Shown: piece by piece, positions 6,531 through 39,052 of the stretch
Position numbering within the stretch: the first letter of the stretch is position 1
Layout: the number at the start of each line of letters is the position of its first letter
Sequence record: KJ748011
DNA: 39,093 nucleotides
Source of the DNA: Escherichia phage PE3-1
Direction: 5' to 3' (one strand)
The notes under the pieces: generated by a model
The model's input: only the letters and a program-made list of their open reading frames with translations
Databases searched by the model: none
Told to the model about the DNA's origin: nothing
Position numbers and translations under genes: made by a program

Positions 6531-7553
6531 ATGACAACTATCAAAACCAACCCGCACCGCGCTGTAGATTACTCTGAGTCAGGCGTTACGAAAGCACTGG
6601 CAGTAGCAGGGTCGCTGGAAGCTGAAGTGAAGTATGACGGTGTGCGGTTGAACCTTCCGGTGCTGCGAGAGGGTGAGACTTATTGGTTAAGCCGTGAGTC
6701 TAAACCACTACCAGCACTTGAGTGGATGAACTCTGAGTTAGGCAATGCGTGGACTCAGGCTGACTGGAGGTGGTTCCTTCGTCAAGCTGGCTATGAAGGT
6801 ATCGGCCTAATGATTGATGGCGAGGTCATGGTCAAAGGTGTTGACTTTAATACGTCCTCAGGTCTCATTCGAACCAAGTGGCTCAAGCCTAACAACGAGG
6901 AGTTCGCTGAATGCTATTCGGGCCGTGGCAAGAAGGTCCCGTTCTGGGTCGCCCGGTCACGACTTAAGGTTGTGGTTTACGGTATTGTCGACATGACAAC
7001 CATTGCTGACCCGAAAGCAGAAGGTCCTATCCACAGCGTCACACGCCTGAAGGCCGAAGCTATCGTCCCTCTCCTCCAGAAATACTTCCCGGAAATCGAC
7101 TGGGTTCTGTCTGAGTCGCACACGGTCTATGACCTTGAGTCGCTCAACTCCCTGTACGAACAGAAGCGTCTGGAAGGACACGAGGGTCTGGTAGTCAAGG
7201 ACCCGCTGGGTAAATACAAGCGTGGCAAGAAGTCAGGCATGTGGAAAATGAAGCCAAGCGAAGAGGCAGATGGTCACGTTGTTCGTCCGGTGTGGGGAAC
7301 GGAAGGTTTAGCCAACGAAGGTCTGGTCATTGGGTTTGACGTTATGCTTGAGAACGGGATGGAGGTCTCCGCAACTAACATTAGTCGCGCCCTTATGTCC
7401 GAGTTCACAGAGAACGTCAAGTCAGACCCAGATTACTACAAAGGGTGGGCCTGTCAGATTACCTACATGGAGGAGACACCAGATGGAAGTTTGCGACATC
7501 CGTCATTCGACCAGTGGCGAGGGACTGAGGACAATCCTACAGTCAAGATTTAA
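6531..7553 (+). CDS. 1.3: ATP-dependent DNA ligase
   Basis: 340 aa; adenylation motif KYDGVR (Lys in EVKYDG); synteny with T7 gene 1.3. Confidence 0.95.
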   Translation: MTTIKTNPHRAVDYSESGVTKALAVAGSLEAEVKYDGVRLNLPVLREGETYWLSRESKPLPALEWMNSELGNAWTQADWRWFLRQAGYEGIGLMIDGEVMVKGVDFNTSSGLIRTKWLKPNNEEFAECYSGRGKKVPFWVARSRLKVVVYGIVDMTTIADPKAEGPIHSVTRLKAEAIVPLLQKYFPEIDWVLSESHTVYDLESLNSLYEQKRLEGHEGLVVKDPLGKYKRGKKSGMWKMKPSEEADGHVVRPVWGTEGLANEGLVIGFDVMLENGMEVSATNISRALMSEFTENVKSDPDYYKGWACQITYMEETPDGSLRHPSFDQWRGTEDNPTVKI

Positions 7554-7944
7554 GGTTGACCGGACGGCTCCTTCGGGAGTCTCCAACCTGAAGGGTAAAC
7601 ACTTAGGTTATCGACGCAAGGACGGCTACTGGATTATAAACACAACCAAGGGTCAACTCCTTGCCCACCGGGTAGTCTGGGAGCTAACTCACGGTCCGAT
7701 ACCGGAAGGAATGGTTATTGACCATATAAACAGAGACCCTTCTGATAACCGCATTGAGAACCTAAGGTGTGTGACTCAGGCAGTGAACCTGACGAACGTC
7801 GCCGTCCGTAGCCACTGCAAGTCTGGCGAGAAGTATATTAACTTTGAGCCAAGGACTGGTCGCTGGCAACTGAGGATAAAGCGTAAGTCATACGGTACGT
7901 TCGCTACCATAGCCGAGGCGGTAGCCTTAAGAGATTCATTATAA
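7483..7944 (+). CDS. HNH homing endonuclease with C-terminal AP2-type DNA-binding domain
   Basis: HRVVWELTHGPIPEGMVIDHINRDPSDNRIENLR plus AP2-like GRWQLRIKRKSYGTFATIAEAVALR; start at ATG 7483 with GGAGGAG RBS, overlapping the ligase 3' end by 71 nt (track ORF 7330 extends upstream in the same frame). Confidence 0.85.
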   Translation: MEVCDIRHSTSGEGLRTILQSRFKVDRTAPSGVSNLKGKHLGYRRKDGYWIINTTKGQLLAHRVVWELTHGPIPEGMVIDHINRDPSDNRIENLRCVTQAVNLTNVAVRSHCKSGEKYINFEPRTGRWQLRIKRKSYGTFATIAEAVALRDSL

Positions 7945-8846: not shown

Positions 8847-9001
8847 CTGAGGTTGAGAAGAAATACATCGTGGAGCTTGAGGGTCGAGTTCAGTCCTTCG
8901 AGGTTCCGGTGTACGCAAAGTCTCTTGAAGAGGCTACCCTGAAGTCCCAAGAGTATGAGGACGCTGGGTTTGTGGTAGGACGGATTCGTCCTGAGACTTA
9001 A
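8843..9001 (+). CDS. 2: gp2-like inhibitor of host RNA polymerase
   Basis: 52 aa; [25 protein letters not shown] parallels T7 gp2; GGAG RBS 8 nt upstream. Confidence 0.8.
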
Positions 9002-9019
9002 ACTATCACTGTAGGACAG
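8997..9019 (+). promoter_or_regulatory. Phage RNAP promoter variant CTTAAACTATCACTGTAGGAC (phi2.5 position)
   Basis: One substitution at -3 relative to consensus; directly upstream of SSB. Confidence 0.65.
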
Positions 9020-9058
9020 ACGTCCAGTTCGTAACTTTAAATTAGGAGATTTACACCA

Positions 9059-9754
9059 ATGGCTAAAGAGCAACTGAAGACTTTCACCACTCCGGTAGCT
9101 GGTATCGTTGAGCCTTACGCATGGCTGAACAAAGCAGACACCAAGTTCAACGAGCGTGGTGAACATAAAGTCAACCTGACATTCGACCTGAGCAACCCGA
9201 AGGTCCGTAAGATGATTGATGTCTTACAGAAGATTCACGACGATGCATATGCGAAAGCACTCGCAGACCACGAGAAGAACCCGCCTCAGGTTCAGCGTGG
9301 CAAGAAGCCTATTGAACCACGAGAAGGCGACATGCCGTGGATTGAGAATGGTGACGGTACTGTTACCCTGAAGTTTAAATGCTTCGCGTCTTACCTGAAA
9401 GACGGCAAGTCCGAGCCTATCGTATTACGGTTCTACGACACCGATGCTAAACTCATCCGTGACGTCCCGAATATTGGCTCAGGGTCTAAGCTGAAGGTCA
9501 AGTTTAAAGTCCTGCCGTTCAAGTGGAACGCTGCGACTGGTGCAAGCATTAAGCTCCAGCTTGAGTCCTGCCTTATGGTAGAACTGAAGGAGTGGAAAGG
9601 TGATGGTGCTGGTGGCGATGGTGGCTGGGGTGATGATGAAGACCTCGGTACTGGCTACAAAGCGCCAACCGATGGTGACTTCGGGTCTGATGACTTCGGC
9701 GACGATGGTTCCGAAGGTGGTGATGAAGATACTGCAGGAGACTACGACTTCTAA
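9059..9754 (+). CDS. 2.5: Single-stranded DNA-binding protein (gp2.5)
   Basis: 231 aa; AEPYA, RGKKP..P.EGDMP, NGDGT.T.KFKC.AS, GSKLKVK..PFKWN, acidic C-terminal tail ending in F, as in T7 gp2.5. Confidence 0.95.
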   Translation: MAKEQLKTFTTPVAGIVEPYAWLNKADTKFNERGEHKVNLTFDLSNPKVRKMIDVLQKIHDDAYAKALADHEKNPPQVQRGKKPIEPREGDMPWIENGDGTVTLKFKCFASYLKDGKSEPIVLRFYDTDAKLIRDVPNIGSGSKLKVKFKVLPFKWNAATGASIKLQLESCLMVELKEWKGDGAGGDGGWGDDEDLGTGYKAPTDGDFGSDDFGDDGSEGGDEDTAGDYDF

Positions 9755-10204
9755 ATGACGCTGAAAGAGAAACTGGAGGCTTACTCTAAGGTTTCTCCTT
9801 CGGGATGCTGGGAGTGGCAACGCTCCCGGACTAAAACTGGTTATGGTCAAATAGCTATAGGTCATCAGAAACAGGACTATTCTCACCGAGTTTCGTACAG
9901 GGAGTACAAAGGTCATATACCTGATGGATTGGTTGTTAGACATAAATGTGATAACCCTTGCTGCTGTAACCCTGAGCACCTTGAAGTTGGGACTCAGAAG
10001 GACAACATGCAGGACTGCGTGAAGCGGGGACGTCACTCGAAACCGCCAGTATTCGAAGGAGAAGCTAATCACAAGACTAAGCTGACCGAGGAAGACGTAG
10101 CGTTTATCCTGAAGTCCAAGCTGAGGCCTATAGAACTTGCTAAGATGTTTGGCGTTACTCCGCAAGCTATTAATTGGAGACGCAAGAATGGCAAGAACGA
10201 TTAG
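9755..10204 (+). CDS. HNH homing endonuclease
   Basis: 149 aa; GCWEW..GYG..HR.....G.IP.GLVVRHKCDNPCCCNPEHL..GTQKDN is a classic phage HNH signature; starts 1 nt after the SSB stop. Confidence 0.85.
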   Translation: MTLKEKLEAYSKVSPSGCWEWQRSRTKTGYGQIAIGHQKQDYSHRVSYREYKGHIPDGLVVRHKCDNPCCCNPEHLEVGTQKDNMQDCVKRGRHSKPPVFEGEANHKTKLTEEDVAFILKSKLRPIELAKMFGVTPQAINWRRKNGKND

Positions 10205-10637
10205 CCGAGGGCATCAAGTAGGAATATATAGGTCTGGACTAGAAGCAAAGAACCAAGAGTGGCTGGAGAAGAACGGAGTTAAGGCTGAGTACGAGATGTA
10301 TAGCATCAAGTACACAATACCAGAATCTCTTCACAGTTATTGTCCAGACTTTGTACTGCCCAACGGAATAATTGTGGAGACCAAAGGAATCTTCGCAGTG
10401 GAAGACCGCAAGAAGCACCTATTGATTAGAGAACAGCACCCAGAGTTAGACATTCGGTTCGTGTTCTCAAGTTCCCGCTCCAAGTTATACAAAGGGTCTC
10501 CGACCACGTATGGCGCATGGTGCGAAAAGAACGGCTTTAAGTTTGCCGACAAGTTTATCCCGGTTGAGTGGCTGAGAGAGGCGACTGTACGTCTGCCTTC
10601 TGGTATACTCATCCCCAAGAAGAAAGGAGTTAAGTGA
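10188..10637 (+). CDS. 3: Endonuclease I (Holliday junction resolvase, gp3)
   Basis: RSGLE, PDFVLPNGIIVETKG, RKKHLLIREQHPELDIRFVFSSSRSKLYKGSPTTYG..CEKNGFKFADK match T7 gp3; start moved to ATG 10188 (GGAG RBS), track ORF 10137 in same frame. Confidence 0.92.
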   Translation: MARTISRGHQVGIYRSGLEAKNQEWLEKNGVKAEYEMYSIKYTIPESLHSYCPDFVLPNGIIVETKGIFAVEDRKKHLLIREQHPELDIRFVFSSSRSKLYKGSPTTYGAWCEKNGFKFADKFIPVEWLREATVRLPSGILIPKKKGVK

Positions 10638-11107
10638 TGACTCAGAAATATAGACTTAAGACTGGATTCAACGGGTGGCCAGCAGGCACTATCGTTACGA
10701 AATGTTCGAAAGACCCTGTACCATCACCTGTAATGACTCTGGTGGAATCCTCCGAGAGGGGAATCTACAAACACGGAGCGGAAGGTTATAACACTCAGCC
10801 TGACGGTATGTGGGGAGCGTGGGTTATAAATAATCAGCTTGAGGAAATCTTAGAGGATAAACCGCAAGTCCTGCCAGCCTCAAGTGTCCCTCCTGTCACA
10901 GTTAAACGTGAAGTCCTGACCATCAACAAGATCGGTGTAGGTCAGACGTTCATCGTCCACGGTAAGCCTGACGAAGTGTACGTGAAGATTAGCAACTCTC
11001 ACGTCTTCAACCATAAGTTGCTCCAGATGCACACGACTGACGCACAGCGCTTCCAACGTCATCTGAACCTCGTAGCTGTAGAGCTGGTGGTGTACGATGG
11101 TGAGTAA
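10634..11107 (+). CDS. Hypothetical protein (157 aa) inserted between endonuclease I and lysozyme
   Basis: Clean ORF with AAAGGAG RBS and ATGA coupling to gene 3; no T7 counterpart at this position. Confidence 0.65.
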   Translation: MMTQKYRLKTGFNGWPAGTIVTKCSKDPVPSPVMTLVESSERGIYKHGAEGYNTQPDGMWGAWVINNQLEEILEDKPQVLPASSVPPVTVKREVLTINKIGVGQTFIVHGKPDEVYVKISNSHVFNHKLLQMHTTDAQRFQRHLNLVAVELVVYDGE

Positions 11108-11579: not shown

Positions 11580-11795
11580 ATGATTAAACTTATTGAATTT
11601 CTAGGTCGTCTGGTGGTGCGTGGTTATCGTCGTGCTGCGGTTCTGGAACGAAAGGTAGAAAAGAAGACTGCTGATGATGCGGCTGATGCTGCTGCTCTGG
11701 CTGACAAGCTGACCATCGCATCACTGGAAGCTGGCATGAAGGCTCGTCAGGCTGATACCAAAGCTAACCAGTTGGCTCAGTTCTTCAAAGACTAA
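11580..11795 (+). CDS. Hypothetical protein (71 aa), Ala/Lys-rich, predicted helical
   Basis: ORF with AAAGGAG RBS immediately after lysozyme. Confidence 0.55.
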   Translation: MIKLIEFLGRLVVRGYRRAAVLERKVEKKTADDAADAAALADKLTIASLEAGMKARQADTKANQLAQFFKD

Positions 11796-38509: not shown

Positions 38510-39052
38510 ATGAGTAAACAGAAGGCCATCGACAGGGTGGCCCTCTTTAATCACTATGCTTATGTAGATGGTGAGTTGGTGTGTAGGAAACCTTATAAAG
38601 GATCTCGCAAGAAGCCCGGTGAGGTAATGGGACATTCAGTTCATCCGTCTGGGTACGCAATCGTGAAGGTTCTTGGCAGTCGGTATAGACGTGCCAGAAT
38701 CATCTACAGCCTAGTCGTTGGTCGAATACCTTCTGGCATGATGGTTGACCATATCAATGGTGATAGACTTGATGACAGGCCGGATAACTACAGGTTAGTA
38801 ACAGCATTAGAGAACCGATGGAACTCAGGAGGTGGCGATACTAATGGTCTACCCAAAGGTATCAGCTTTTTCAAGCCTACCGGAAAGTATCGCGCTCAGT
38901 TGCGCCTAAAAGGTAAGTGCTTCACGAAGACCTCAGATTCCATAGAGGAACTAGAGGTGTGGCTTGATGCTTTACGCACTGAGAAGCACAAGGAATACGC
39001 AGTAAACCGACGGTCCCCTAAGCGTGATAGGACCCATAGAAACCACAAGTAA
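38510..39052 (+). CDS. HNH homing endonuclease with AP2-type DNA-binding domain (second HNH-AP2 copy)
   Basis: 180 aa; GMMVDHINGDRLDDRPDNYRLVTALEN plus AP2-like GKYRAQLRLKGKCFTKTSDSIEELEVWLDALR; strong GGAGGAGG RBS. Confidence 0.88.
   Translation: MSKQKAIDRVALFNHYAYVDGELVCRKPYKGSRKKPGEVMGHSVHPSGYAIVKVLGSRYRRARIIYSLVVGRIPSGMMVDHINGDRLDDRPDNYRLVTALENRWNSGGGDTNGLPKGISFFKPTGKYRAQLRLKGKCFTKTSDSIEELEVWLDALRTEKHKEYAVNRRSPKRDRTHRNHK

Follow-up and report, generated by a model that had tools for sequence, protein, structure and literature searches.

A free-standing HNH homing endonuclease gene, counterpart of T7 gene 2.8, in the interval between SSB and endonuclease I of a Kayfunavirus genome

The HNH gene and its neighbours

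In this study, we analysed a window of 39,093 nt from Escherichia phage PE3-1 (KJ748011), with emphasis on an open reading frame located between the genes for SSB (gene 2.5) and endonuclease I (gene 3). Positions 9000-10800 are 100% identical to the reverse strand of KX689784.2 (phage JSS1, Kayfunavirus PE31; megablast), and in the comparisons below the window sequence is referred to as JSS1. Relative to KX689784.2 (39,024 nt) the window is reverse-complemented, circularly permuted and 69 nt longer; a terminal direct repeat was not found on comparing both window ends. The locus contains the following features.

8998..9020, + strand: phage RNA polymerase promoter of the phi2.5 type for the SSB-HNH-gene 3 unit (one mismatch to the annotated CR44b promoter)
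9059..9754, + strand: gene 2.5, SSB (Pfam SBB_T7, E 4.9e-72; about 95% identical to all relatives except in the last ~50 nt)
9755..10204, + strand: HNH homing endonuclease gene, free-standing and of the T7 gene 2.8 type (ORF listing, Pfam, identity to T7 gp2.8, GenBank, absence from most relatives)
9755..10030, + strand: predicted nuclease domain with His-Me finger and Cys3His zinc site, residues 1-92
10079..10189, + strand: predicted C-terminal three-helix helix-turn-helix DNA-binding domain, residues ~109-145
10176..10179, + strand: Shine-Dalgarno motif GGAG of gene 3, within the 3' end of the HNH ORF and 8 nt 5' of ATG 10188 (read from the sequence)
10188..10637, + strand: gene 3, endonuclease I (Holliday junction resolvase; Pfam Phage_endo_I, E 1.9e-74; 60.7% identical to T7 gp3 from residue 1)
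10188..10448, + strand: 5' half of gene 3, diverged and linked to the HNH gene; may represent a co-conversion or immunity tract (identity windows, GC content)
10245..10276, + strand: conserved island, candidate recognition or immunity site (GCAAAGAACCAAGAGTGGCTGGAGAAGAACGG in JSS1; AG to GC at 10256-57 and GA to AC at 10268-69 in insert-free phages)

The HNH ORF starts with ATG, encodes 149 aa, and contains both GCWEW and HKCDNPCCCNPEHL; in KX689784.2 its product is annotated as "HNH homing endonuclease" (AOZ65171.1). The original prediction of a GCWEW-containing HNH gene between SSB and endonuclease I was confirmed by the ORF and by the Pfam matches of all three products (HNH_3, SBB_T7 and Phage_endo_I). 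The gene was proposed to start one nucleotide after the SSB stop codon, and indeed the TAA at 9752-9754 and the HNH ATG form TAAATG with zero spacer, i.e. the two genes directly abut. The gene 3 start was placed inside the 3' end of the HNH ORF, which also holds: the gene 3 ATG (10188-10190) leads to an overlap of 17 nt in a different frame, and residue 1 of this product pairs with residue 1 of T7 gene 3 in tblastn. A TTG start of endonuclease I at 10137 was rejected in favour of ATG 10188 on the basis of the GGAG 8 nt upstream and the alignment with the T7 start. An antisense ORF (9479..10165, 228 aa, TTG start) was rejected as well, because all promoters (11/11) and the annotated genes lie on one strand and the sense strand carries two well-supported genes at this position.

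There are 11 copies of a 16-nt promoter core in the window, exclusively on the + strand. The copy at 9001 lies upstream of SSB and the next is found only at 11795; the HNH gene therefore lacks its own promoter and is cotranscribed with the SSB and endonuclease I genes. No RNA family was found by Rfam between 8800 and 11200 (E<=1). The GC content is 0.47 in the HNH gene and 0.44 in the 5' half of gene 3, versus 0.51 in SSB and 0.50 in the 3' half of gene 3.

Two further observations concern the neighbouring genes. Over its last ~50 nt (9700-9754, + strand; acidic C-terminal tail), SSB shows only 54-83% identity to every relative, pO91 included, and has lost 3 nt; JSS1 alone shows this divergence, which is unlinked to the HNH gene. 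On the other side, 3' of endonuclease I, the gene at 10634-11107 (+ strand) encodes a 157-aa product without Pfam match; in pO91, Penshu1, UFJF_EcSW4 and ZCEC02 an unrelated gene of 225 nt stands in its place. This gene replacement at the gene 3 stop is a further mosaic boundary.

Protein family, conserved residues and predicted fold

Pfam HNH_3 (PF13392) matches the focal protein with 54.7 bits (gathering cutoff 24.8; E 7.8e-15) over residues 42-86, corresponding to profile positions 2-46 of 46. PHROG endonuclease families match at E 1e-35 to 1e-32, with phrog_1872 on top (E 9e-35). Moreover, 150 homologues were retrieved at E<=1e-10 from 5.8 billion proteins, and PF13392 is present in all of them. 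Thus, the ORF is not a chance reading frame.

The closest well-known relative is T7 gp2.8 (NP_041971.1), with 42% identity over 140 aligned columns (BLASTP, E 4e-35). A tblastn search of 50,697 phage records with the focal protein recovered T7 at the same 42%, at a position between genes 2.5 and 3. In T7 (NC_001604) gene 2.5 ends at 9856, gene 2.8 follows directly at 9857-10276, and its last 20 nt overlap gene 3, which begins at 10257. The slot and the overlap layout are thus equal in both phages, with a gene 3 overlap of 17-20 nt. The best PHROG families of the two proteins are the same (phrog_1872, phrog_59 and phrog_6254, with phrog_59 and phrog_1872 on top for both), and both proteins consist of an N-terminal HNH part followed by a C-terminal HTH-like region. 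The JSS1 protein differs by 10 additional amino acids, an insertion past the nuclease core, and its gene resides in a genus, Kayfunavirus, in which it is rare. The focal ORF is therefore the direct counterpart of T7 gene 2.8 in the canonical slot of the family and not a new arrangement; the presence of the homologous T7 gene in exactly this slot had not been remarked in the original prediction. Annotations of relatives point in the same direction, with "protein Gp2.8/Gp7.7 contains HNH endonuclease motif" in pO91 and "similarity to phage T7 HNH endonucleases" in Penshu1. The order SSB-HNH-endonuclease I, with proteins 65-79% identical, is also found in Berlinvirus PP74, Teetrevirus SH1, Serratia phage 2050H2, several Klebsiella phages and others, and genes of the gene 2.8 type with intact active sites occur in at least four Studiervirinae genera. 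Remoter homologues occupy other slots, e.g. beside a virion assembly gene in Dickeya phages. Cleavage, nicking or homing by T7 gp2.8, or a mapped cleavage site of this protein, was not found in the searchable literature.

An alignment of 59 homologues, from which the T7 and UFJF sequences were left out and which also served as model input, was used to evaluate the conservation of single residues. C18, Y30, H63, C65, D66, C70, P73, H75, G79 and D87 are invariant and all present in JSS1, and the near-invariant residues H44, R45, N67, N72 and N84 (N84 in at least 90% of the sequences) are likewise kept. We propose that H63 acts as general base, N84 as metal ligand, and C18, C65, C70 and H75 as zinc ligands. 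A profile built from the homologue alignment covers both the nuclease and the C-terminal region of I-HmuI (E 0.0055) and matches the H-x-C-x4-C-x4-H-x8-N motif of I-PpoI (E 0.05). In I-PpoI, the residues of this motif comprise the histidine that acts as general base, three of the ligands at the first zinc site and the asparagine that binds the metal. Past N84, the 59-homologue alignment shows no conserved Cys/His cluster, and the protein accordingly lacks the second zinc site of I-PpoI. With the ligands of the first zinc site kept and the second cluster missing, the focal protein thus resembles the His-Cys box enzymes but is not classed with them. A single-sequence phmmer search against the PDB returned nothing meaningful (a weak HTH match and chance matches to beta-lactamases), and I-HmuI and I-PpoI were consequently reached only by profile search.

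The AlphaFold2 model calculated from the homologue alignment has a mean pLDDT of 87. It consists of a beta-rich N-terminal part, a beta-beta-alpha unit at residues 60-90 and three C-terminal helices at residues 112-145; the beta-beta-alpha metal finger by which His-Me finger nucleases are defined is therefore present in the predicted structure. The closest solved structures are the homing endonucleases I-HmuI and I-PpoI, at weak Foldseek E values (3.7e-3 and above). I-HmuI nicks one strand. It is 17-20% identical in sequence to the focal protein, is encoded by an intron and lacks the Cys3His zinc site, whereas the JSS1 gene is free-standing. I-PpoI, unlike the JSS1 protein, has a second zinc site and no C-terminal HTH, and is a dimeric enzyme of a eukaryotic intron. 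(Structures compared were PDB 1U3E for I-HmuI, from Bacillus phage SPO1 and of the HNH type, and PDB 1A73 for I-PpoI, of the His-Cys box type.) Taken together, residue conservation and model predict that the focal protein is a His-Me finger nuclease with a single active site, one structural zinc site and a DNA-binding tail of the HTH type, in an I-HmuI-like architecture.

Because the Shine-Dalgarno motif and the ATG of gene 3 lie within the HNH ORF, a deletion of the HNH gene requires a precise event, as in the in-frame fusion of phage ZG49 described below. A catalytically defunct remnant could therefore have been retained for the ribosome-binding site and start context that its 3' end supplies to gene 3, which is essential in this context. 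We consider such a remnant very unlikely for JSS1, since all invariant residues of the family as well as N84 are kept, and the ORF is of full length, yields a confident model and is 98.7% identical to that of pO91, with no sign of decay. Judged from these sequence features, the ORF is a real gene that probably encodes an active HNH homing endonuclease.

The window harbors two other HNH genes, at 7330-7944 and 38510-39052, and the original prediction assigned the focal gene to a different subfamily from them. Both ORFs match Pfam HNH_3 too, therefore this assignment is correct only below the Pfam level: phrog_99 is the best family for both (E 2.6e-42 and 6.6e-40, respectively) and reaches only 1.1e-7 with the focal protein, for which phrog_1872 is best. 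In BLASTP the focal protein aligns with one of the two at 33% over 67 aa, restricted to the HNH core, and the other alignment is not significant; the Cys-rich motif of the focal protein is lacking in both. The AP2 label given to these two copies could not be confirmed. A Pfam AP2 domain was not detected in either protein even at E<=10, and no BLASTP alignment was obtained to a plant AP2 domain; their C-terminal parts are covered by phrog_99 only.

At 7330-7944 (+ strand) GenBank calls a 78-aa "HNH homing endonuclease" at 7711-7944, which starts inside the HNH_3 domain. The ORF continues upstream of this call: an ATG at 7483 is preceded by GGAGGAG at a distance of 7 nt and would yield a product of 153 aa, with 71 nt of its frame shared with the 3' end of the ligase gene, and the deposited annotation is probably truncated. 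The gene at 38510-39052 (+ strand) is the third HNH_3 gene (180 aa, phrog_99 type) and directly follows the large terminase gene. In pO91 an ORF of equal length at the equal position (L017:38260-38802) is annotated as hypothetical protein. Two more HNH-motif genes flank the DNA polymerase gene of pO91, and these are lacking in JSS1. For another Kayfunavirus, Hafnia phage Ca, a different HNH gene was described between the lysis and terminase genes, which overlaps both of its neighbours in a similar manner.

Gain, persistence and loss at the SSB/gene 3 slot

The original prediction suggested a comparison with relatives lacking the insert. We searched related records with a 501-nt query across the uninterrupted junction, counting a junction as uninterrupted when at least 80% of the query matched in one place, and found this in 212 of 219 records; the number is approximate because nearby pieces were joined. 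The HNH gene is thus an insert, and the ORF is not conserved in all relatives as a core gene. In the insert-free phages pO2, CR44b, IME177, ST31, LM33_P1 and yong1 the gene 2.5 stop and the gene 3 start are fused as TAATG or TAGTG. Gene 3 thus starts there by coupling to the gene 2.5 stop (TAATG), instead of from the Shine-Dalgarno motif that the insert carries. In most HNH-bearing genomes it is the HNH ATG that takes the TAATG or TGATG coupling used by gene 3 in the insert-free state.

The JSS1-type allele was found in six Kayfunavirus records, namely JSS1, pO91 (98.7% identity), Penshu1 (85%), TH20 (84%), SHAK9454 (81%) and TM1 (79%). UFJF_EcSW4 (L004:1256-1705) and Emlis (L012) carry a different HNH protein of 149 aa in the same slot, 42% identical to the focal one, and ZCEC02 (L011:1350-1784) carries a third. 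Although these three genomes are nearly identical to the other Kayfunavirus genomes, their slot HNH genes are only 42-48% identical to that of JSS1, and therefore several diverged alleles compete for one site. A reshuffling of HNH alleles against the alleles of the gene 3 5' part was observed as well, Penshu1 and ZCEC02 having the same gene 3 allele and different HNH genes. Homing endonuclease gene content in general varies among Kayfunavirus genomes that are ~94% identical overall, which fits the independent acquisition of the HNH genes that was originally proposed.

Since T7, SH1, PP74 and several Klebsiella phages have a homologue at the equivalent position, one might read the gene as a conserved core gene of this group with a role other than that of a nuclease. 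We regard this as extremely improbable: the gene is absent at the great majority of Kayfunavirus-type junctions (~212/219) and from the slot in the Teetrevirus phiYeO3-12, alleles of 42% identity share the slot in near-identical genomes, and the nuclease motifs are intact. The focal HNH gene is sporadic, absent from ~95% of Kayfunavirus, and not a core gene. The presence/absence polymorphism at one site in close relatives that characterizes homing endonuclease genes is observed at this locus.

Loss of the gene is documented by phage ZG49 (KX669227.5; L036:1058-1564, the same as IMG/VR locus L022). Its TAATG-coupled "endonuclease" of 168 aa is a chimera, in which the first 18 codons of a TM1-type HNH gene (MKLKEKLEAYSEVSPGGC) run on without frameshift into endonuclease I (SMSRGHQVGAY...). 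The HNH gene has lost about 390 nt, and the gene 3 part retains the island sequence of the insert-bearing type. This fusion is a footprint of homing endonuclease loss by which the TAATG coupling to the SSB gene was restored. With HNH-free, HNH-bearing and remnant states at hand, gain, persistence and loss are therefore visible at one locus.

The gene 3 flank and a proposed model of homing

The first ~260 nt of gene 3 in JSS1 are strongly diverged, with 30-nt windows being 37-87% identical to six insert-free relatives, compared to 90-100% in the last ~190 nt; the six insert-free phages are near-identical to each other over the gene 3 5' part. In a genome-wide comparison of JSS1 with the insert-free phage yong1 in 150-nt windows, the median identity is 95.3% and the 5th percentile 84%, and the window 10250-10399 reaches 72%. 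In contrast, pO91, which carries the same HNH gene, is 99% identical to JSS1 over 9800-10399 and thus lies above the 95.3% median. The pattern recurs independently in Teetrevirus, where SH1 (with HNH) and phiYeO3-12 (without HNH) are 93-100% identical in SSB up to its stop and 56-83% throughout gene 3, and return to 96-100% ~90 nt into gene 3.5. Across Kayfunavirus the gene 3 5' half exists in at least four alleles at 71-82% identity, and the 3' part is near 95%.

The linkage of the diverged tract to the HNH gene suggests co-conversion. A diverged tract of ~260 nt is the expected signature of such an event, as seen in a comparative pattern that is confounded by shared ancestry. No outside donor was found for the JSS1 gene 3 5' half, PP74, SH1, T7 and phiYeO3-12 being only 60-63% identical, and for this reason gene 3 5' hypervariability may alternatively have a cause unrelated to the HNH gene. 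In addition, the conservation of SSB hides co-conversion on the left side, and the right-sided asymmetry is therefore weak evidence of the cut position. In T4-like phages (background in PMC2988022 and PMC2790892), free-standing Seg and Mob genes such as mobE and segG are intergenic, promoter-less or tightly packed and sporadic, and are accompanied by a co-converted diverged flank in a neighbouring conserved gene. The JSS1 HNH gene is also intergenic, tightly packed and sporadic, with a diverged flank in a conserved neighbour. The T4-like genes differ in that they belong to another phage group, the Seg enzymes are of the GIY-YIG nuclease family, and cleavage sites of the T4 enzymes have been mapped.

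Within the diverged tract, the island at 10245-10276 stands out by its conservation. All eight sampled HNH-bearing Kayfunavirus phages read AAGAACCAAGAGTGGCTnGAGAAGAA (the CAAGAG...GAGAAG form), and all six insert-free phages read AAGAACCAGCAGTGGCTGGAACAGAA (the CAGCAG...GAACAG form), the two forms being two dinucleotides apart. The island is constant in the eight HNH-bearing phages, although their HNH genes represent three or four very different alleles and their gene 3 sequences three. In an exact-pattern scan of IMG/VR the CAAGAG form was found at three loci, which carry a JSS1-type HNH gene, a UFJF-type HNH gene and the remnant only, and the CAGCAG form at 11 loci, with an HNH gene in 0/11; the sampling is not fully independent, as several entries repeat phages already in GenBank. 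The distribution is compatible with a recognition site that would be sensitive in HNH-less and resistant in HNH-bearing genomes. It may equally reflect ancestry, since all sampled insert-free phages share a single common gene 3 allele and the association could be purely phylogenetic.

Considering these observations, it is likely that the focal gene is a free-standing homing endonuclease of the T7 gene 2.8 type that undergoes classical homing into HNH-less relatives at or near the 2.5/3 junction, with a gene 3 segment copied along. Identity and architecture of the gene follow from the comparisons above, whereas cleavage, its site and homing itself are what we infer, and the process could be envisaged as follows. 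The HNH protein would be translated at a low level, coupled to the highly expressed SSB gene via TAAATG. In a mixed infection, it would nick or cut the DNA of a relative without the HNH gene, at the 2.5/3 junction or close to it, most likely in the 5' part of gene 3 and with the island 10245-10276 as best candidate. Recombinational repair off the HNH-bearing genome would then transfer the HNH gene together with a cleavage-resistant gene 3 segment to the recipient. Since the insert would take over the coupled start of gene 3, the GGAG at 10176-10179 in the HNH 3' end would serve as substitute ribosome-binding site.

Alternatively, the gene might be kept mainly for its benefit to the phage, by blunting a break-sensing host defence or by harming co-infecting competitors, with self-propagation being secondary. 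A 2025 preprint regards T7 as having three homing endonuclease genes (2.8, 3.8 and 7.7) and reports that the defence system GAPS4 is attenuated by phage HNH homing endonucleases, including catalytically dead T7 gp3.8, and that T7 without 2.8, 3.8 and 7.7 loses to wild type only in the presence of GAPS4 (10.1101/2025.09.07.674715). The persistence of gene 2.8-type genes with intact active sites in the several Studiervirinae genera mentioned above would also be in line with such a benefit. However, gp3.8 is the sole protein that was assayed alone, and gp2.8 was deleted only jointly with the others (10.1101/2025.09.07.674715). The absence of the gene from about 95% of Kayfunavirus and its deletion in ZG49 are moreover more in keeping with a selfish element that can be dispensed with than with a gene of general use to the phage. 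Maintenance mainly by phage benefit is thus rather unlikely in our view, and it would be compatible with homing, which we retain as the preferred explanation.

It is tempting to speculate that the gene 2.8-type nucleases of T7-like phages all target the island 10245-10276, and that repeated invasion, resistance and loss explain the N-terminal hypervariability of endonuclease I (the at least four alleles at 71-82% in genomes ~95% identical). This extension is possible, if somewhat doubtful. A non-catalytic anti-defence role, as for T7 gp3.8, could exist in addition to island targeting. If the common target is real, a selfish nuclease would continuously reshape an essential recombination enzyme, and the locus would offer a tractable model of a full homing cycle in T7-like phages.

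The gene is of little consequence as a new find: selfish mobile genes of this kind are well known, it is annotated in GenBank, and its T7 counterpart was catalogued long ago. Its interest lies in the explanation of a local mosaic in gene 3, which could mislead phylogenies or recombination analyses of Kayfunavirus, and in a concrete prediction of the target site for a family of nucleases in which, apparently, specificity has not been mapped before. For the engineering of therapeutic phages it implies that co-infection could spread the HNH gene and the linked gene 3 allele. Together with ZG49, the locus clearly illustrates how a homing endonuclease gene is gained, kept and lost at a single site.
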